Virus record (IMG/VR): IMGVR_UViG_3300014790_000001
DNA length: 55,066 nucleotides
DNA from: a virus
Direction: 5' to 3' (one strand)
The notes under the pieces: model-generated
The model's input: only the letters and a program-made list of their open reading frames with translations
What the model was told of the DNA's origin: nothing
The model's database searches: none
Translations under genes and position numbers: made by a program
Shown here: positions 1,716 to 24,350 of the stretch, piece after piece
Position numbering within the stretch: position 1 is the stretch's first letter
Layout: each line of letters opens with the position of its first letter

Positions 1716-2456
1716 ATGAGTACATTTGAAGAAAGAATAGTGAAAGCAGTAACAGATAAATTGAATGACGGAACAGTTGAAGAGCTTGTATCCGATGCCG
1801 TAACAAAAGCACTGAAAAGCAGTATTGAAGATCAGTTCAACTGGAAAGGTGAAGCAAAGAAGATTATAGATGAGAAAGTAAAAGAAGTAATGACACCGGT
1901 AATCGAAAGAGTAAATCTGGACGAATATACAGTGAAACTCGATGCAGTTCTCACGGAAATTATTAACAGCACAAATCTGATTGACAACAAAGAAATCTTA
2001 GGAAACTTCAAGAGTCTTATGACAGAGCCGGATAAAGATACAATCAGCTTAAAAGAAGTGTTCGAAAAATACAAGGAATATGTCAGCGAGAGTGTTGATA
2101 CATCAAAACTTGAAATAAATGTAGATGAAACGCCGTCATATCAGAATGTTACGGCCGATGTAACAGTCGAAATGAGAGATTCTATGTTTGGTAGAAGATA
2201 TTGCGACTTATTGTTCAAATGCTATGAAGACGAGAATCTCACAAAGAAAATTCATCTTCATGAATCAAAACTGCATGGCAGATTCCGCATTACATCATTT
2301 AGAGGTGAAATTGATCTTAATTCATTAAGATATGTAGATAAGTTTGACATTTTCATGATGAGATTAGACAGGGCGTTCTGTGATATCACGGATGTTATGG
2401 ATATGTATGATGATGATATCGAGGTTGAAGCAGAACCAGAAGTATCGTGGAGCTAA
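1716..2456 (+). CDS. hypothetical protein
   Basis: ATG 1716 preceded by GGAGAAAGGA. 246 codons. Confidence 0.7.
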   Translation: MSTFEERIVKAVTDKLNDGTVEELVSDAVTKALKSSIEDQFNWKGEAKKIIDEKVKEVMTPVIERVNLDEYTVKLDAVLTEIINSTNLIDNKEILGNFKSLMTEPDKDTISLKEVFEKYKEYVSESVDTSKLEINVDETPSYQNVTADVTVEMRDSMFGRRYCDLLFKCYEDENLTKKIHLHESKLHGRFRITSFRGEIDLNSLRYVDKFDIFMMRLDRAFCDITDVMDMYDDDIEVEAEPEVSWS

Positions 2457-2474
2457 AAGGGAGAGAAAAAACTT

Positions 2475-2777
2475 ATGAGATTGGCATATTGCATTGTTAT
2501 GATTATTCTCTTATGTACGTATATAGCAGTAGAGGAAAGAGAGACAAGAATTGCAAAGGAAGAAGCGTATCAGGACGGATACCGAAAAGGACTGAAAGAA
2601 TGCCACAAACTTCCGACACGACCGATTATCTTGGATGATTCTACGGAAGACATTGATTTTAAATGTTCATGCTGCGGACAGGAATATATAGTGCCGGAAG
2701 AGGAAAAACCGAAATACTGTAGCAAATGCGGAAGAGAGATTGACTGGGAGGATAAAGCGTATGGGATGCAGATATGA
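2475..2777 (+). CDS. membrane-anchored zinc-ribbon protein
   Basis: N-terminal hydrophobic helix (LAYCIVMIILLCTYIAV), then CSCCG...CSKCG. Confidence 0.65.
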   Translation: MRLAYCIVMIILLCTYIAVEERETRIAKEEAYQDGYRKGLKECHKLPTRPIILDDSTEDIDFKCSCCGQEYIVPEEEKPKYCSKCGREIDWEDKAYGMQI

Positions 2778-2931
2778 ATGCAAAAAGTACGGAAAGCAGA
2801 GGTTCAAATGTTGCATAGAATGCGAGCATTACAAATACTGCAATAATCGCAATAGTGTGTGCGACAGAATACATTTTCATGAATACATGGAAGAATGCCC
2901 GGATTATGTAAAGGAGGATGAAGATGAGTAG
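2761..2931 (+). CDS. Cys-rich mini-protein
   Basis: GGGAGG 8 nt before ATG 2761. 11 Cys in 56 aa. Overlaps the upstream stop. Confidence 0.55.
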   Translation: MGCRYECKKYGKQRFKCCIECEHYKYCNNRNSVCDRIHFHEYMEECPDYVKEDEDE

Positions 2932-3091
2932 AATCGGAATAGGAGCAAATGTCACACAGCCAGATGCAAAATGTATGAGCTGTAAATATTGGAAACAAGC
3001 AGAAAAAGAAAGATTTGGTTTTGGACGAGGTGGGTACTGCTCAACCGGATATTGCAAGAAAGATTTTCGGAAGAAAGGTAAGAAAAAATGA
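2924..3091 (+). CDS. Cys-rich, Lys-tailed mini-protein (55 aa)
   Basis: AAGGAGG 6 nt before ATG 2924. Hand-translated. ATGA overlap with the next gene. Confidence 0.5.
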   Translation: MSRIGIGANVTQPDAKCMSCKYWKQAEKERFGFGRGGYCSTGYCKKDFRKKGKKK

Positions 3092-3417
3092 GAATAATTA
3101 GCCAAGATGGATGTTGTGATATACCTTATGAACAAGCCGTGGTTGCTCGCCTTGACAGAACGGTGGTTGCATATCCATTAAACGATTTGGGAAGTTCGGA
3201 TTATATTCAGCTCGCCGATTATTCCACCGAAGAGAAAGCTATTAAGGCTATGGAAATGTGCAGAAACAGGTATGCATGGTGCAAAACGAGAAACAACGGA
3301 ATGAACTCACTCACTATGGCTATGAGCTTTCGAAGAACAGATGAAATAGAACAACTTTTAGAAACGTTTGCGGAGGAAAATATTTTTCAATTCCCGGCAG
3401 ATGAAGATGTGGAATAA
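3088..3417 (+). CDS. hypothetical protein
   Basis: 109-codon ORF with an ATGA overlap to the upstream gene. Confidence 0.65.
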   Translation: MRIISQDGCCDIPYEQAVVARLDRTVVAYPLNDLGSSDYIQLADYSTEEKAIKAMEMCRNRYAWCKTRNNGMNSLTMAMSFRRTDEIEQLLETFAEENIFQFPADEDVE

Positions 3418-3732
3418 ATGTACTGGGTAGACAGAAGCACTGGCGAGATCGTATCTGAAAAAGACAAAAGCAAACCTCTATGGGCATATTATGAATATTT
3501 AAGAGGTTATGGGGACGGAGTTATTATCGAGACTTACATAATAGGAGAGAACCCGCTCTGCCTGATAGATTTTGCATATTGTGTCGGCGATAAGTATGTA
3601 AATCTAAAAAGAGATTGCCATTTCAAAAATCACGGCGTGGATAGAAACAATGTTAGATTGTGCGCCATAATCGTTCCGACTAAAGAATATGACGAAAAGA
3701 TAAAAGAGATAAAGAGAGGTGTAGAAAAGTGA
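3418..3732 (+). CDS. hypothetical protein
   Basis: ATG directly follows the upstream TAA. 104 codons. Confidence 0.65.
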   Translation: MYWVDRSTGEIVSEKDKSKPLWAYYEYLRGYGDGVIIETYIIGENPLCLIDFAYCVGDKYVNLKRDCHFKNHGVDRNNVRLCAIIVPTKEYDEKIKEIKRGVEK

Positions 3733-17800: not shown

Positions 17801-18427
17801 ATGAACTTCGGAGAAGCCATAAAATGCATGAAAAAGGGAAAGAAAGTTACACGCAATGTATGGAAAGAAAGCTTTTTCAATGGGAGAAAACAGTTTATTT
17901 TTATTGGGAAAAACAAAGGTTTAACAACGAATACGTTTCTTGCAATTCTACCAGAAGAAGAATGCTTTTCGGACTGCATTATGGGGTATACGCGAAAAGG
18001 AATCTTTCAGCCAAACTGGACACCAACACAAGAAGATATGCTTGCGGAAGATTGGGAAATGTATCCGGCAGAGGAAACGGTAGTCGATGAAACGCCGAAC
18101 ATTACGGCAGATGAAATGATTGATCTCAAAAACCGTATCGGGTGGAACATTAAATTTTATTCTACCGGGGAAACAATTATTTCTGAGCACATGGACTATC
18201 AAAAACTCTTAACCGGGGCAGAAAATACATATACGCTGTCGTTTGCTATCCCTAAAAAAAGTCTTGATGGTTTGTCAATGACAAATAAATGCCAAAACGT
18301 TATTGTTTCTGGACTTTTATTCAAAGTATATGCTTCTAGGAATATTGCTGACGATAGCCTTTGGCTCGTGACGGAAAGTGCCTTATCTGAAAAAGAATTT
18401 CACACAATTATAAGATTGGAGAGGTGA
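17801..18427 (+). CDS. DUF2829 (Tad2-like) N-terminal domain protein with an unknown C-terminal extension
   Basis: MNFGEAIKCMKKGKKVTR..W...WTPTQEDMLAEDWEMY matches the DUF2829 hallmark. About 120 extra residues follow. Confidence 0.6.
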   Translation: MNFGEAIKCMKKGKKVTRNVWKESFFNGRKQFIFIGKNKGLTTNTFLAILPEEECFSDCIMGYTRKGIFQPNWTPTQEDMLAEDWEMYPAEETVVDETPNITADEMIDLKNRIGWNIKFYSTGETIISEHMDYQKLLTGAENTYTLSFAIPKKSLDGLSMTNKCQNVIVSGLLFKVYASRNIADDSLWLVTESALSEKEFHTIIRLER

Positions 18428-19572: not shown

Positions 19573-19606
19573 AGAGACTTTAACGAACTGTTAAGGTCTC
19601 TTTTTT
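19573..19606 (+). terminator. rho-independent terminator
   Basis: 11-bp stem AGAGACTTTAA/TTAAGGTCTCT (one G-U pair) with a 7-nt loop, then T5. Confidence 0.8.
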
Positions 19607-19662
19607 ATGCGTAAAATGAAAGCATAGAGAACAACAAATACTAATTTACAGGAGGTATGAGT

Positions 19663-20088
19663 ATGAATCCATATATGCCATATACACCGTACATGCCACA
19701 GGATGCTTATATGCAAGATCAGATGGCATTACGACAACGGATAGACAACTTATCACAAGCTCAGCAGCAATACAAGGCACAGCCACAGCCGAATGTAAAC
19801 TGGATACAGGTAACCGGAATTGACGGGGCAAGGAATCAGATTGTACAGCCGGGAACAACGGCTTGGATGATGGATAACAATGCACCGTATTTCTATGTTA
19901 AATCTGTTGACGGTGTGGGAAGTGTTACGTTTAAAGCTTTTGAATTCCATGAGGTACAGGCGAACAATCCACAACCTGTAGTGGAAAACATGGACGCTAA
20001 GTACGTAACAAGAGAAGAATTCAACAAATTACTGGATACATTGAAACCTCAGCCGGAAGAACAGAAAGGGGAGCTGACACATGAGTAA
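19663..20088 (+). CDS. protein with a P/Y/M/Q-rich N-terminus
   Basis: AGGAGG 7 nt before ATG 19663. MNPYMPYTPYMPQDAYMQDQ..., then a globular NWIQVTGIDGARNQ... domain. Confidence 0.65.
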   Translation: MNPYMPYTPYMPQDAYMQDQMALRQRIDNLSQAQQQYKAQPQPNVNWIQVTGIDGARNQIVQPGTTAWMMDNNAPYFYVKSVDGVGSVTFKAFEFHEVQANNPQPVVENMDAKYVTREEFNKLLDTLKPQPEEQKGELTHE

Positions 20089-20335
20089 TCCACTAATGGG
20101 AATGATGGGCGGTATGCCGGGTGGCAACGGCCCATTCGGAATGATTCAAAGAATGATGGGGATGATGCAAAATACACAGAATCCCGGAGCAATGCTACAG
20201 AATATGGCACAGAGCAACCCGAACATCAAAAAAGCTATGGATATGTGCCAAGGAAGAAACCCGAAAGATGTATTTATGGAGATGTGTCAGCAAAATGGCA
20301 TGAATCCAAACGACATTATCAATAAAATAAAGTGA
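20081..20335 (+). CDS. Met/Gly/Asn/Gln-rich small protein
   Basis: MSNPLMGMMGGMPGGNGPFGMIQRMMGMMQN.... 84 codons. Confidence 0.6.
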   Translation: MSNPLMGMMGGMPGGNGPFGMIQRMMGMMQNTQNPGAMLQNMAQSNPNIKKAMDMCQGRNPKDVFMEMCQQNGMNPNDIINKIK

Positions 20336-20387
20336 TATCCGGACGGAGTGCACACGTCTTGATAAATAAAAGAAAAGGAGAACCAAC

Positions 20388-20787
20388 ATGAACGAGGGAT
20401 TAAACACACTTAGCGCTGCCGATGTAGCAGCGGTCACAAGAAACAACGATGGAAACATGTGGGGTGACGGTGGATGGTTTTGGATCATCATTCTTGCTTT
20501 CCTGTTTTGCGGTAACGGATGGGGAAACAACAAAGGAGCACAGGACGCTTTTGTCTCTGACGAATTCGTGAAAAGAGATATCTTTAACACAAATCAGAAT
20601 GTGTCCAACACAGCTTGCGAGACACAGAGAGACGTATTAGAGAACCGCTATACCACACAGCTCGGCTTGCAGAACTTACAGGCTCAGCAGGCTCAGTGTT
20701 GCTGTAACACACAGAAAGAAATCTTACAGAGTAGATATGACGCGGCATTACAGGCACAGAACATGCAGGCACAGATGGCACAGTGCT
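20388..20787 (+). CDS. exon 1 of an intron-split membrane / Cys-triplet protein
   Basis: TM segment WFWIIILAFLFCG, then Q-rich repeats with a CCC motif. The sequence becomes unrelated after 20787. Confidence 0.75.
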
Positions 20788-21880
20788 TAAAGAGATTCTT
20801 TAAAGCCATAAGGAATCTGTTTACCAAAAAAGTAAACACAGTAGGCACTTACGCATAGTAATATGCGTTGGCAACCGGGAGAATTGCTGGAAAATCTAAG
20901 TTTACTTTTACTTTCGCATTAAAATAATGTATAATTAAAATATCAATAATACTTATGCGGAGGTAAGAATATGTTTTATGTATATGAATGGTTTATAGTT
21001 TCAACTGGAGAAATAATATATGTTGGAAAAGGTCATAAGAAAAGATATAAGGTTAGAAAGCACAATCGTCTTTTTAATGAAATGATAAAAAGATTTGAAT
21101 GTGATAGCCGTATTATCAAAGAATTTGAAGACGAAAGGGAAGCTTTTCTTTACGAGGACATCAGAATTGCCGAACTGAAAAAGAAAGGTCAATGTGTATG
21201 TAATATCAACCGAGGTGGAACCGGCGGTGATACAGAGTGGTGGAACGAAAAAAGAAGAAAAGAATATTCTGAACATAATGTTATGAAATCTAAAAGCCAG
21301 AGACAAAGAATGTCTGAAAAAAATCCGATGAAAGACAAAAAAACAGCCATGAAAGTTGGGAAAACAAAGTGGAGAGGTGTAATGGTCGGAGATGAAGAAT
21401 ATGAAAGTCTGGCACAAGCTGCAAAACATTATGGAGTAACTGTTCAAGCCATATCGTATTGGTTAAAAAGAAAGCAGACACCAGATTTAAGACCTTGCTA
21501 TTATGTCGGAGAAGAAAAACCTATTCCACACAAAATAAAGTATTCATTTTGTAAGCCAGTATATATTGATGGGAAACATTTTGAAAGCGTAAAGAGCGCA
21601 GCTGAATACATTAACGTAACGCAAAACTCTTTGATAGCAGCACTAAAAAATAATAGACCATGTAAAGGACATATTTGTAAATATGACAATCAGCAGCCTA
21701 GTCAGACGAATACCGATAAGAGTAGTTTGAAAGGTTCAGAGACTAACGAGTGAGGACGGAAACCAATAATCTCGACACGAGTACCCGGCTCCTACCCGAA
21801 TGGTAGGATGAAGATATAGTCCGAACTATCGAGGAAACCGATAGAAATGTAGAATAAAGAGTCTACATGTTAACAAAATG
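20788..21880 (+). mobile_element. group I intron (1,093 nt) carrying a GIY-YIG homing endonuclease
   Basis: P-like AATTGCTGGAAAA (20882-94), Q-like AATCAGCAGC (21688-97), R-like GTTCAGAGACTAAC (21734-47) and S AAGATATAGTCC (21811-22), in canonical order. The exon ends in U and the intron ends in G. Splicing restores the reading frame. Confidence 0.85.
20971..21753 (+). CDS. GIY-YIG homing endonuclease with C-terminal NUMOD/IENR-like DNA-binding repeats
   Basis: FYVYEW...GEIIYVGKG...R...E...NINRGG, plus two repeats (YESLAQAAKHYGVTVQAISYW and FESVKSAAEYINVTQNSLIAAL). Confidence 0.85.
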   Translation: MFYVYEWFIVSTGEIIYVGKGHKKRYKVRKHNRLFNEMIKRFECDSRIIKEFEDEREAFLYEDIRIAELKKKGQCVCNINRGGTGGDTEWWNEKRRKEYSEHNVMKSKSQRQRMSEKNPMKDKKTAMKVGKTKWRGVMVGDEEYESLAQAAKHYGVTVQAISYWLKRKQTPDLRPCYYVGEEKPIPHKIKYSFCKPVYIDGKHFESVKSAAEYINVTQNSLIAALKNNRPCKGHICKYDNQQPSQTNTDKSSLKGSETNE

Positions 21881-22149
21881 GCTGTGACATTAAAGAAAGC
21901 ATCTTAGCAGATGGACAGGCTACACGCCAGTTAATCCAGGATAACACGATTCAGAACTTGAGAGACAAGCTCGCTGATCGTGACAGAGATTTGCAGACAG
22001 CATACTGGCAGATCTCACAGGTATCACAGACCAATAACATTATTGATGCAGTGAGACCGACACCAAAACCGGCTTATATGTCTTGCAGTCCATATTTTGC
22101 GTATAACGCATTTGGTAATGGTTGCTGTGCAAGTGGGAATGTGATGTAA
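21881..22149 (+). CDS. exon 2 of the intron-split Cys-triplet protein
   Basis: The frame is open only from 21874. Joining 20787 to 21881 gives ...QMAQCCCDIKESIL..., for a total of 669 nt (222 aa). Confidence 0.75.
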
Positions 22150-22356
22150 GTGAATGATATATCACTACTTGACTTTCTGACAGTGTACGGAGTTGCTTTA
22201 CAGATAGCGAATTTTAACAGTGATCTATCACAGGCAAGTAATTCCGACATCGAAAAACACTTGCACGAGCAAGACAGTAAGTATTTTTTAAAAATAATTG
22301 AAAACCAAAACAAAATCATAAGCATGTTGGAAGAATCCATATCTACAAAAAAGTAG
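22150..22356 (+). CDS. hypothetical small protein
   Basis: GTG start abutting the upstream TAA. 68 codons. Confidence 0.5.
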   Translation: MNDISLLDFLTVYGVALQIANFNSDLSQASNSDIEKHLHEQDSKYFLKIIENQNKIISMLEESISTKK

Positions 22357-22370
22357 TCTTGCGAACATCA

Positions 22371-22402
22371 AAGAGAGTAGGCATGCGCTTGCTCTCTTTT
22401 TT
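22371..22402 (+). terminator. rho-independent terminator
   Basis: 12-bp stem (AAGAGAGTAGGC/GCTTGCTCTCTT, with G-U pairs) and a T-run. Confidence 0.8.
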
Positions 22403-22419: not shown

Positions 22420-22848
22420 ATGTTAAATTCTATTGCTAAAAACGCTCAGACAGTAGCAACAAATCAGAATGTATTATTTACGGAAACAAGAGTGAAAAGC
22501 CGTAGATGTGCTTGTAACACAGGATGGCTTTCACATGACAACGGCAGTGGACTTTTTGAAATCACAAACCGTGGGAATCTGCCGATGGCGGTCGAAGTTG
22601 AGTTTAATGGAAATGTAACGTTATCAGCAATAGGCGCAGTAGCGTTATCTATCAAACAGAACGGAGAACCGATTTCCGGTACTGAAATGGACTATACAGT
22701 AGCAACGGCAAATGTGTATCAGAATGTCGGTGCTACTACATTGATTGCAGTTCCGGCCGGAAGTAGCGTCACTATATCGGTTGGCAACGTTGGCACAGTT
22801 GACACATTGGTTAAGGATGCGAATATCATCATTAAAAAACTCTCATAG
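22420..22848 (+). CDS. BclA C-terminal-domain-like (C1q/TNF-like jelly-roll) protein
   Basis: The alternating beta-strand pattern and the ...DANIIIKKLS C-terminus resemble exosporium BclA-CTD. No collagen repeats. Confidence 0.45.
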   Translation: MLNSIAKNAQTVATNQNVLFTETRVKSRRCACNTGWLSHDNGSGLFEITNRGNLPMAVEVEFNGNVTLSAIGAVALSIKQNGEPISGTEMDYTVATANVYQNVGATTLIAVPAGSSVTISVGNVGTVDTLVKDANIIIKKLS

Positions 22849-24263: not shown

Positions 24264-24350
24264 CGGGATATAGTTCAATGGTAGAACAAAAGTCACAATC
24301 ATCTCTTTAAAAAAAGACTTATGTCCACGGTTCGATTCCGTGTATCCCGA
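24264..24350 (+). tRNA. tRNA-like element with an aberrant anticodon arm (anticodon not assignable)
   Basis: Perfect 7-bp acceptor stem CGGGATA/TATCCCG, then U8 A9. D arm GTTC-AATGGTA-GAAC and T arm CACGG-TTCGATT-CCGTG. The AAGTC/GACTT stem closes a 21-nt loop instead of a 7-nt one. Confidence 0.5.

Follow-up and report, generated by a model that had tools for sequence, protein, structure and literature searches.

A probable mobile group I intron with a GIY-YIG/I-TevI-like endonuclease gene interrupts a phage gene within a cysteine codon triplet

In bacteriophage T4, the ribosome-binding site (RBS) of an intron-encoded endonuclease is sequestered on read-through transcripts, and a promoter is placed such that the gene's own transcripts lack the inhibitory strand (PMC2988022). 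Here we describe a locus with a comparable arrangement in a viral DNA record of 55,066 nucleotides (IMG/VR record IMGVR_UViG_3300014790_000001), which is called the window in what follows. Positions 20788 to 21880 of the window very probably constitute a mobile group I intron of subgroup-IA-like architecture, judging from sequence comparison, and this intron lies inside a gene for a 222-amino acid phage protein with a conserved Cys-Cys-Cys motif (the "Cys-triplet" gene).

The locus resembles the T4 td/I-TevI system, a subgroup IA2 intron, in several respects. Both are phage group I introns with the classical P, Q, R and S elements, an extra stem between P7 and P3′ (a prime denotes the 3′ strand of a helix) and a P9.1 stem, and in both the endonuclease open reading frame (ORF) is looped out of a peripheral hairpin. 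Like I-TevI, the window enzyme is predicted to have a GIY-YIG amino-terminal domain, a linker and helix-turn-helix (HTH) DNA-binding modules. Its Shine–Dalgarno (SD) sequence likewise appears to be sequestered, and a promoter-like site may give transcripts without the inhibitory strand. Unlike that of td, which is located in P6a, the window ORF is located in the P5 loop, and its last ~24 codons overlap P5′ through P7 and end inside P7.1. Also unlike td, the P1 loop of the window intron carries a 56-nt insert that forms two hairpins in frame with exon 1, and the host gene codes for a membrane-anchored Cys-rich protein rather than a protein of nucleotide metabolism. The GIY-YIG domain, unlike that of I-TevI, is too divergent for direct detection by sequence.

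Group I introns of Firmicute phages provide a second comparison. The window has such introns in common with the Herelleviridae (SPO1, Twort and the Bastillevirinae; PMC11878797) and with the tape-measure genes of Clostridium perfringens siphophages, and introns are documented in related Bacillus phages (PMC11878797). Indeed, stretches with ~79% identity to the 3′ core of the window intron (P7′ to P9.1) occur within two kinds of gene, namely the DNA polymerase gene in Bacillus phages Hakuna and OmnioDeoPrimus and the tape-measure gene in phiCP13O, phiCP34O and vB_CpeS-17DYC. However, the host gene and the insertion site of the window intron differ from those of the Herelleviridae and tape-measure introns, which also lack the endonuclease family of the window. 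The sole match to this family among 50,697 phage records is Clostridium phage CPQ4 (MZ401006.1). CPQ4 carries an intron of the same architecture in the same gene family and at the same site (after base 1 of the second Cys codon in the triplet), with an endonuclease 47% identical to that of the window and an intron-less counterpart in Clostridium phage HMD-PC1. Unlike that of the window, its P1 loop is short (10 nt).

A selfish group I intron with a homing endonuclease is a well-known type of element, and its insertion site here has not been described before. In effect, the locus adds a newly recognized lineage and insertion site to a class of elements that is thoroughly known, and the principles known for group I introns are left unchanged. 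Our literature search found no description of the window intron, nor of introns in this gene family of C. perfringens phages.

The split gene and its uninterrupted alleles

The interrupted gene and its insert occupy three consecutive segments of the window.

20388..20787, + strand: exon 1 of the Cys-triplet gene; 400 nt, ending in U, which is base 1 of Cys codon 2 of the second CCC motif; collinear with intron-less alleles L003 to L009
20788..21880, + strand: probable group I intron; 1,093 nt, following U and ending with G21880 (omega-G)
21881..22149, + strand: exon 2; 269 nt including the stop codon; the BLAST alignment to intron-less allele L003 resumes exactly at 21881

A first-pass annotation of the window, made from its letters alone, had proposed that the ORF at 20388 is the front part of a gene that continues in a second frame ending at 22149. 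The sequence agrees with this description. The ORF (20388 to 20858; 156 amino acids) reads ...QAQNMQAQMAQC and then passes into an unrelated 23-residue tail, LKRFFKAIRNLFTKKVNTVGTYA, that ends at a stop codon, whereas the frame ending at 22149 is open upstream to 21874. Joining U20787 to G21881 yields 400 + 269 = 669 nt and a 222-amino acid product containing ...QMAQCCCDIKESIL.... The predicted ligated junction is ...CAGUGCU/GCUGUGAC..., where the slash marks the point of joining, and the corresponding intron-less site of the L003 type is ...GGCACAGTGTT/GCTGTGATATTAAAGAAAGC....

A search with the predicted spliced protein returned 1,452 homologs. The best three (P0001 to P0003) are each 222 amino acids long and 98 to 99.5% identical, and they differ from the predicted product by one residue (P0001; G46V, 221/222 identical), four residues (P0002) and five residues (P0003), all distant from the junction. 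Intron-less alleles, for which the first-pass annotation had suggested a search, are present in close relatives as uninterrupted genes of exactly 669 nt (L003 to L009). These genes reside on contigs that carry the neighboring genes of the window, in the shared order 141/143 amino acids, 84 amino acids, split gene, 142, 196 and 140 amino acids, and then the scaffold gene. Allele L003 differs from the joined exons at 6 nt, and over 1.2 and 2.0 kb of flanking sequence it shares 97.1% and 97.5% identity with the window. The L003–window alignment breaks off at 20785 and picks up again at 21881. Only the cut at 20787/21881 yields the uninterrupted sequence of the relatives, and the intron is thus assigned to the 1,093 nt from 20788 to 21880. 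By this comparison, the insertion point is after base 1 of Cys codon 2 in the conserved Cys-Cys-Cys motif. Both the precise intron-less alleles and the resulting presence/absence polymorphism are direct observations. More distant uninterrupted homologs occur in MT837318 (73% identity) and in phage HMD-PC1.

The window also differs from the intron-less alleles immediately around the insertion site. The C20786 of the window corresponds to T in all seven close intron-less alleles (TGC versus TGT), and at exon position 408 the window again has C, versus T in most of these alleles. Both differences are synonymous and adjoin the insertion site, and C20786 converts a U.G pair of P1 to a C-G pair. The first CCC motif of exon 1 (20694–20705; CAGTGTTGCTGT) matches all 12 nt of the insertion-site span in the intron-less alleles but carries no intron, so the choice of target must be governed by flanking sequence, probably that on the downstream side.

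These alleles bear on an intron-free alternative, in which a stand-alone GIY-YIG endonuclease gene sits between two distinct genes and the core elements arose by chance or are vestiges. Gene callers do annotate the region in this manner, with the N-terminal part and a "hypothetical" endonuclease called separately and exon 2 left unannotated, both in CPQ4, an isolated Clostridium phage, and in many phage contigs from metagenomes. However, the single 669-nt gene of the relatives equals exon 1 plus exon 2 to the base, and exon 2 has neither a start codon of its own nor an RBS upstream of 21958 in the window sequence. The structural covariation described below lies far above its controls, and ORF-less 279-nt forms of the insert, located at the same site, match the Rfam group I model strongly. 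We consider the separate-gene explanation scarcely credible, and the intron reading calls for these annotations to be corrected. Two other classes of intervening sequence were considered and dropped, namely a group II intron (no reverse transcriptase and no domain V) and an intein (the insert is not in frame as protein).

The ribozyme core and its covariation

The first-pass annotation had placed sequences close to the P, Q, R and S elements at 20882–94, 21688–97, 21734–47 and 21811–22, and these are found there in that order. The helices that can be assigned around them are listed below, with pairing statistics from an alignment (A1) of 12 introns that either lack an ORF or had it deleted.

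20782..20849, + strand: P1; exon AGUGCU (20782–87) with guide GGCACU (20844–49), and a U20787.G20844 wobble at the splice site
Inside P1, + strand: L1; 56 nt with hairpins P1a (20793–98/20813–18) and P1b (20819–24/20832–37)
20837..20842, + strand: guide half of P10, CACAGU; pairs with the first 6 nt of exon 2, GCUGUG (21881–86)
20851..20868, + strand: P2 hairpin, ACGCAUA/UAUGCGU; its loop holds UAG (20856–58), the end of the exon 1 read-through frame
20875..20879, + strand: P3 5′ strand, CCGGG; pairs with CCCGG (21784–88); 100% paired, 3/5 pairs compensatory
20885..20890, + strand: P4 5′ strand, UGCUGG (in P); pairs with UCAGCA (21690–95, in Q); 100% paired, with G-C changed to U-A in L035
20900..20905, + strand: P5 5′ strand, GUUUAC; pairs with GUAAAU (21677–82); 98.6% paired, 5/6 pairs compensatory
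21696..21735, + strand: P6, GCC (21696–98)/GGU (21733–35); from the hand-drawn structure and the 12-intron alignment
Within 21696..21735, + strand: P6a, UCAGAC (21702–07)/GUUUGA (21725–30), with conserved loop GAAnnCnGAUAAnAGUA; 100% paired, 5/6 pairs compensatory
21739..21745, + strand: P7 5′ strand, G(A)GACUA (in R); pairs with UAGUCC (21817–22, in S) and forms a pseudoknot with P3; 100% paired
21747..21774, + strand: P7.1, CGAG (21747–50)/CUCG (21771–74), with a small nested stem; 100% paired, 5/6 pairs compensatory
21791..21807, + strand: P8 hairpin, CCUACC/GGUAGG; from the hand-drawn structure and the Rfam alignment
Within 21826..21868, + strand: P9, CUAUCG (21826–31)/CGAUAG (21839–44); from the hand-drawn structure
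Within 21826..21868, + strand: P9.1, AUGUAGA (21847–53)/UCUACAU (21862–68); 100% paired, 5/7 pairs compensatory

To score this model, the hand-drawn structure from P1 to P9.1, including the P3/P7 pseudoknot, was applied to alignment A1. Standard pairs form in 92.8% of the cells, compared with 31 to 41% when the partners are slid by 1 to 3 columns. Changes on both sides are seen in 44 of 82 pairs, and none of 500 shuffles reaches the observed values, whether for the count of such pairs, the percentage paired or the score for covariation. P3, P4, P6a, P7, P7.1 and P9.1 are each 100% paired with compensatory changes, whereas the unpaired cells of P8 and P9 stem from gap placement. P3 occurs as CCGGG/CCCGG, UUGGG/CCCAA and UUCGG/CCGAA. 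The GACTA/TAGTC pairing that had been put forward as P7 joins a strand within R to a strand within S in all 12 relatives, and its G21739-C21822 pair is A-U in 7 of the 12. Subgroup IA introns typically carry an additional element in the interval from P7 to P3′. In the window this interval contains one covarying stem (P7.1) and a small nested stem, and a subgroup finer than IA-like is left unassigned.

Pairing between the intron and its exons is maintained in the same manner. Exon 1 ends in U and the intron ends in G21880, as the first-pass annotation had observed, and its proposed pairing of GGCACT (20844–49) with exon AGTGCU, with U.G at the splice site, corresponds to a 6-bp P1 in 12/12 introns; a P10 of 4 to 6 bp is likewise found in 12/12. 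The P1 guide covaries with exon 1 (AGUGCU/GGCACU, ACUGCU/GGCAGU and GCUGUU/GACAGC), and the P10 guide covaries with exon 2 (GCUGUG/CACAGU, GCUGCG/CGCAGU, GCUGCA/UGCAGU and UGAAAC/GUUUCA). The concern that the guide lies atypically far from the splice site is resolved by the relatives, whose P1 loops measure 10 to 13 nt; the window lineage has the 56-nt insert with its two hairpins.

A covariance-model scan, which had also been suggested as a check, was run with Rfam. At gathering threshold (50 bits for Intron_gpI), only a tRNA is reported in the window, and the intron surfaced in a permissive search. RF00028 (Intron_gpI) then matches 21540–21844 at 38.3 bits (E = 6.5e-8 for a 1.3-kb stretch and 2.8e-6 for the 55-kb window, both strands), and this is the only such match in the whole window. 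Alignment to the 3′ half of the model (Q, P6, R, P3′, P8, S and P9) has high posterior probability, whereas the 5′ half is forced into the ORF; the true 5′ half of the intron lies 770 nt upstream. Two ORF-less 279-nt introns with the same motif, L086 and L114, give full-length matches of 106.4 and 93.4 bits, and their P5 is a plain hairpin. Group I identity is therefore supported by four lines of comparative evidence, namely the intron-less alleles, the covariation from P1 to P10, the covariation of guides with exons, and the ORF-less orthologs above the Rfam threshold.

The sequence anatomy and its covariation are observed directly, and from them we infer catalysis along the usual group I pathway. 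In the precursor mRNA, P1 would form between the internal guide GGCACU and the hexamer AGUGCU at the end of exon 1, with the U.G wobble at the splice site, and P10 would form between the adjoining guide segment and the opening hexamer of exon 2. The core from P3 to P9 is predicted to fold with the P3/P7 pseudoknot. Exogenous guanosine would attack after U20787, the freed exon would then attack after the terminal G21880, and exon ligation would restore ...QMAQ-CCC-DIKESIL.

The endonuclease and the reading frames within the intron

Two further features occupy the P5 loop (20906–21676), which holds the control region and most of the ORF.

20906..20968, + strand: putative endonuclease control region; UUUUACUUUCGCAU (20906–19) pairs with AUGCGGAGGUAAGA (20955–68)
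20971..21753, + strand: homing endonuclease ORF, 260 amino acids; GIY-YIG-like N-domain (residues ~1–80), NUMOD3-like linker and two HTH/NUMOD1-like DNA-binding modules

The 260-amino acid protein is probably a divergent GIY-YIG/I-TevI-like homing endonuclease, an identification with good but not conclusive support from sequence profiles and structure models. It matches PHROG 314, "homing endonuclease," at 1.5e-8 and has 579 homologs. In Pfam, the window protein itself gives weak matches to NUMOD1, I-TevI_DNA-bd, I-HmuI_NUMOD-like and LEM-3_GIY-YIG (E = 0.01 to 0.03; 0.02 for LEM-3_GIY-YIG). When 18 relatives are scanned singly, PF01541 is matched by 4 (best E = 1.2e-5; these are 49 to 88% identical to the window endonuclease), I-TevI_DNA-bd by 5 and NUMOD1 by 6. 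Residues Y3-V4-Y5, Y17-V18-G19, R25, H31, E62, E68 and N78 are invariant in 18 family members, which we take to be the GIY...YIG...R...E...N pattern of I-TevI at similar spacing. A family profile compared with Protein Data Bank (PDB) sequences matches the I-TevI DNA-binding domain (1i3j; E = 0.038) and no catalytic domain.

The AlphaFold2 model (mean pLDDT of 71.6) is consistent with this assignment. It contains a beta-beta-alpha-beta-alpha N-domain (pLDDT about 56–83), followed by a helical linker and two strand-strand-helix-helix modules (pLDDT about 90). The top five Foldseek matches are I-HmuI (1u3e), the I-TevI DNA-binding domain (1i3j), the UvrC GIY-YIG domain (1yd6) and two chains of the I-TevI catalytic domain (1ln0), with two GIY-YIG-domain matches at TM scores of 0.52 to 0.57 (target-normalized) and top-match probabilities of about 0.9 to 1.0. 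Thus, the GIY-YIG identity given in the first-pass annotation stands on motif residues, secondary structure, Foldseek and the Pfam matches of relatives, whereas the window protein by itself misses the Pfam GIY-YIG threshold. Forms of ~213, 260 and 326 amino acids differ by whole HTH/NUMOD-like modules (A2 columns ~197–260; L027 and L035), and the catalytic domain and the C-terminal tail that overlaps the RNA are constant across these forms.

That the ORF extends over Q and R, as had been reported, is evident from the sequence. Its last ~24 codons (21677–21753) overlap P5′, P4′, P6, P6a, the P7 5′ strand and P7.1, such that P4′ (AAUCAGCAGCC) reads N-Q-Q-P, the P7 5′ strand (GGUUCAGAGACUAAC) reads G-S-E-T-N, and the stop codon (UGA, 21751–53) lies inside P7.1; its start lies in the P5 loop. 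All relatives in an 18-member alignment retain the C-terminal tail ...C-K-Y-D-N-Q-Q-P-S-Q-x-N-T-D-x-S-x-L-E-G-S-T-T-N-E, yet residues 242–260 are predicted to be disordered, with pLDDT below 50. This combination fits selection on the RNA, not on the protein, as the source of the conservation.

Expression of the endonuclease may be restricted by RNA structure. The SD sequence GGAGG (20959–63), eight bases upstream of the AUG, is buried in the long-range helix of the control region, whose minimum free energy (MFE) is −15.7 kcal/mol. A comparable SD-sequestering helix is present in the MFE fold of 10 of 11 ORF-carrying relatives (the exception is CPQ4), and it is kept through compensatory changes (CGCAU/AUGCG and CACAU/AUGUG) and even by unrelated sequences in L068 and L105. 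On read-through precursor mRNA, the RBS would be locked in this 14-bp helix. A plausible added benefit is that ribosomes would be kept off the 3′ end of the ORF while it folds as part of the ribozyme core.

The best sigma-70-like site of the region, TTTACT-17-TATAAT (20907–35; 10/12), lies within the sequestering element, and the equivalent site of CPQ4, TTGACT-17-TATAAT, is nearer to the consensus. The 5′ helix strand would be absent from transcripts begun ~7 nt past the −10 box, leaving their RBS free, by the same logic as in T4 td/I-TevI, although use of this internal promoter is purely an inference from the sequence. An I-TevI-style operator, sought by eye as similarity between promoter and homing site, yielded a shared CATTAAA 7-mer alone, which we do not regard as evidence. 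If the control region works in this way, T4-style endonuclease control by a sequestered RBS and an internal promoter recurs in unrelated Firmicute-type gut phages.

A second reading frame enters the intron from exon 1. P1 loop lengths in the lineage are 11, 50, 53, 56, 59 and 71 nt, all 2 mod 3. Among 15 distinct long-L1 variants, the exon 1 frame has 0 stops, versus 33 and 20 in the other two frames, and the chance of an open frame after shuffling is 8 to 17% per variant. This frame always terminates at a UAG or UAA in P2, and the resulting tails of 22 to 29 amino acids are basic and amphipathic (LKRFFKAIRNLFTKKVNTVGTYA in the window and LKKVVQKVKDAFTFAKYEAVGTLAA in L090). The P1 loop might thus serve two purposes, as hairpins and as an open extension of exon 1. 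Two readings of this arrangement can be offered, neither of which we consider likely: a truncated isoform is under selection, making the intron an isoform switch, or a ribosome run to the P2 stop is obligatory for ordered folding.

The first of these readings describes an ordinary mobile intron whose enlarged L1 is also a short coding extension, such that unspliced mRNA yields a functional truncated isoform. This protein would comprise 133 amino acids plus the basic amphipathic tail, and the efficiency of splicing might tentatively be supposed to set the ratio of the two forms. Consistent with this proposal are the loop lengths, the uninterrupted frame, the invariable stop in P2 and the shared character of the tails. 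However, variability in L1 shows only a weak periodicity across codon positions (107/87/122), the L1 hairpins, with their compensatory changes, impose a constraint at the RNA level as well, the variants are kin and their counts are not independent, and short-L1 relatives lack any such tail. A coding role for L1 is therefore doubtful. If true, it would make the intron a splicing-dependent switch between two protein forms.

Several observations weigh against the locus being a functional mobile intron as proposed. At 38.3 bits the window copy formally misses the Rfam gathering score of 50; its low score is explained by the 770-nt P5-loop insert, the ORF, which the model cannot bridge. The window endonuclease gives no PF01541 GIY-YIG match in Pfam at E ≤ 1. 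Foldseek E-values are 0.07 to 0.3 (0.2 to 0.3 for the GIY-YIG-domain matches, with the whole protein as query) because the query is a flexible three-part protein. An hhalign comparison of the family with I-TevI aligns the C-terminal HTH alone, and weakly. In addition, there is no canonical extended TGn motif at the −10 box, and ribosomes reading exon 1 traverse the guide to the P2 stop and would compete with P1 formation.

An alternative is a decayed relic, in which the core no longer splices, the gene is a pseudogene or gives only the 156-amino acid product, and the endonuclease persists as a free-standing selfish gene. The score of the window copy below the Rfam threshold is in keeping with such a relic, and the exon 1 frame is open for 23 codons into the intron, and open in all variants, so the truncated product could be what matters. 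However, all core helices are intact, divergent copies keep them via compensatory changes, guide–exon pairing follows the changes in the exons, and exon 2 is open, in frame and conserved in every intron-bearing relative. Purifying selection acting on exon 2 as well as on the RNA is not what a relic would display, and we regard decay as highly improbable and favor an intron that still splices.

Distribution of the intron and context of its host gene

The same intron is present in the same gene on contigs L010 to L022, with endonuclease identities of 88, 65 and 60%, and also on IMG/VR contigs L023 to L035, in Clostridium phage CPQ4, and in L068, L086, L105 and L114. All examined loci with an endonuclease homolog and a readable 3′ exon have the intron in this gene family, often in very divergent members, at Cys-Cys(-Cys). 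Their exon 2 starts with G(C/T)TG(C/T)GA... and ends with ...RP.P.PAY..C.PY... and then a Cys/Gly-rich tail. The intron/endonuclease pair therefore appears to be dedicated to this gene family, CPQ4 included. A broad Q-R-S pattern scan of IMG/VR found more than 120 contigs, and since most of these hold ORF-less introns in other genes, the Q-R-S core is generic to phage group I introns.

Sequence comparison also suggests that the intron is mobile. Its G+C content is 35%, versus 44 to 47% for the exons. Between the window and L015, the intron is 76.6% identical and the flanking genes are 65 to 69% identical, and intron-plus and intron-less forms differ by ~3% in their flanks. The contrast in G+C, the better conservation of the intron than of its flanks, and the presence/absence polymorphism together would constitute a signature of mobility. 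In the proposed homing pathway, the GIY-YIG/I-TevI-like enzyme encoded in the P5 loop would cut intron-less alleles of co-infecting relatives, and repair would copy the intron in.

Relatives of the window intron vary in position and in annotation. In a sister clade with a short P1 loop (L068, L086 and L114, and also L069), the intron lies in the third Cys codon (TGC TGC T/GN), whereas in the window and CPQ4 (L036) it lies in the second, one codon 5′ of the sister-clade position. In the CPQ4 record (MZ401006.1, locus 2039–3700), GenBank has exon 1 and the endonuclease as hypothetical proteins, with exon 2 and the intron unannotated. A megablast search with 19600–22400 of the window against the 50,697 phage records gave no match, and there is accordingly no close isolate among them.

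A large intron/endonuclease lineage thus seems dedicated to one short, highly conserved cluster of Cys codons in a widespread phage protein family (>1,400 homologs), which marks the motif as functionally important. The lineage also supplies natural ORF-plus, ORF-less, long-L1 and short-L1 variants for studying the overlap of ORF and ribozyme and the coupling of translation to splicing.

The host protein has an N-terminal transmembrane segment (WFWIIILAFLF), long predicted helices, a Cys/Gly-rich C terminus and two Q-rich-CCC-xxxKEIL repeats. In the homolog alignment, the second CCC, where the intron is inserted, is nearly invariant, whereas the first is not. Searches of Pfam, NCBIfam and PHROGs with the spliced protein gave no functional assignment; the PHROG matches, 16490 and 9288, are labeled "unknown," and those in NCBIfam are noise. 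An AlphaFold2 model built with 22 homologs has long helices after the transmembrane segment and a mean pLDDT of 43.6, and is not usable for a fold search. One homolog of 193 amino acids, P0009, is missing exactly the 29 residues between the Q-rich-CCC repeats (A3 columns ~119–147), which looks like a deletion by recombination between the repeats; P0005, P0008 and P0010 are other 193-amino acid homologs, and P0009 is the only one in A3.

The split gene lies in a block of unannotated genes, with minor capsid protein 2, Tad2-like and DUF1653 genes on one side and scaffold and capsid genes on the other. The Tad2-like (anti-Thoeris) gene is upstream at 17801–18427 of the window (PF11195, 3.6e-17). 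A small protein encoded just downstream of the split gene (22420–22848) has a weak match to the BclA C-terminal domain (1.7e-5, below threshold). Farther downstream, a tRNA-like gene (24264–24350, + strand) scores 53.2 bits with Rfam tRNA and receives no ARAGORN call. Its acceptor, D and T arms are normal, and its anticodon stem, AAAGTC/GACTT, encloses a 21-nt loop instead of one of 7 nt. Close relatives keep the tRNA-like body with only the loop length varying (21–26 nt), and distant relatives have an ordinary tRNA-Ile(tat), tRNA-Met(cat) or tRNA-Tyr(gta) at the same spot.

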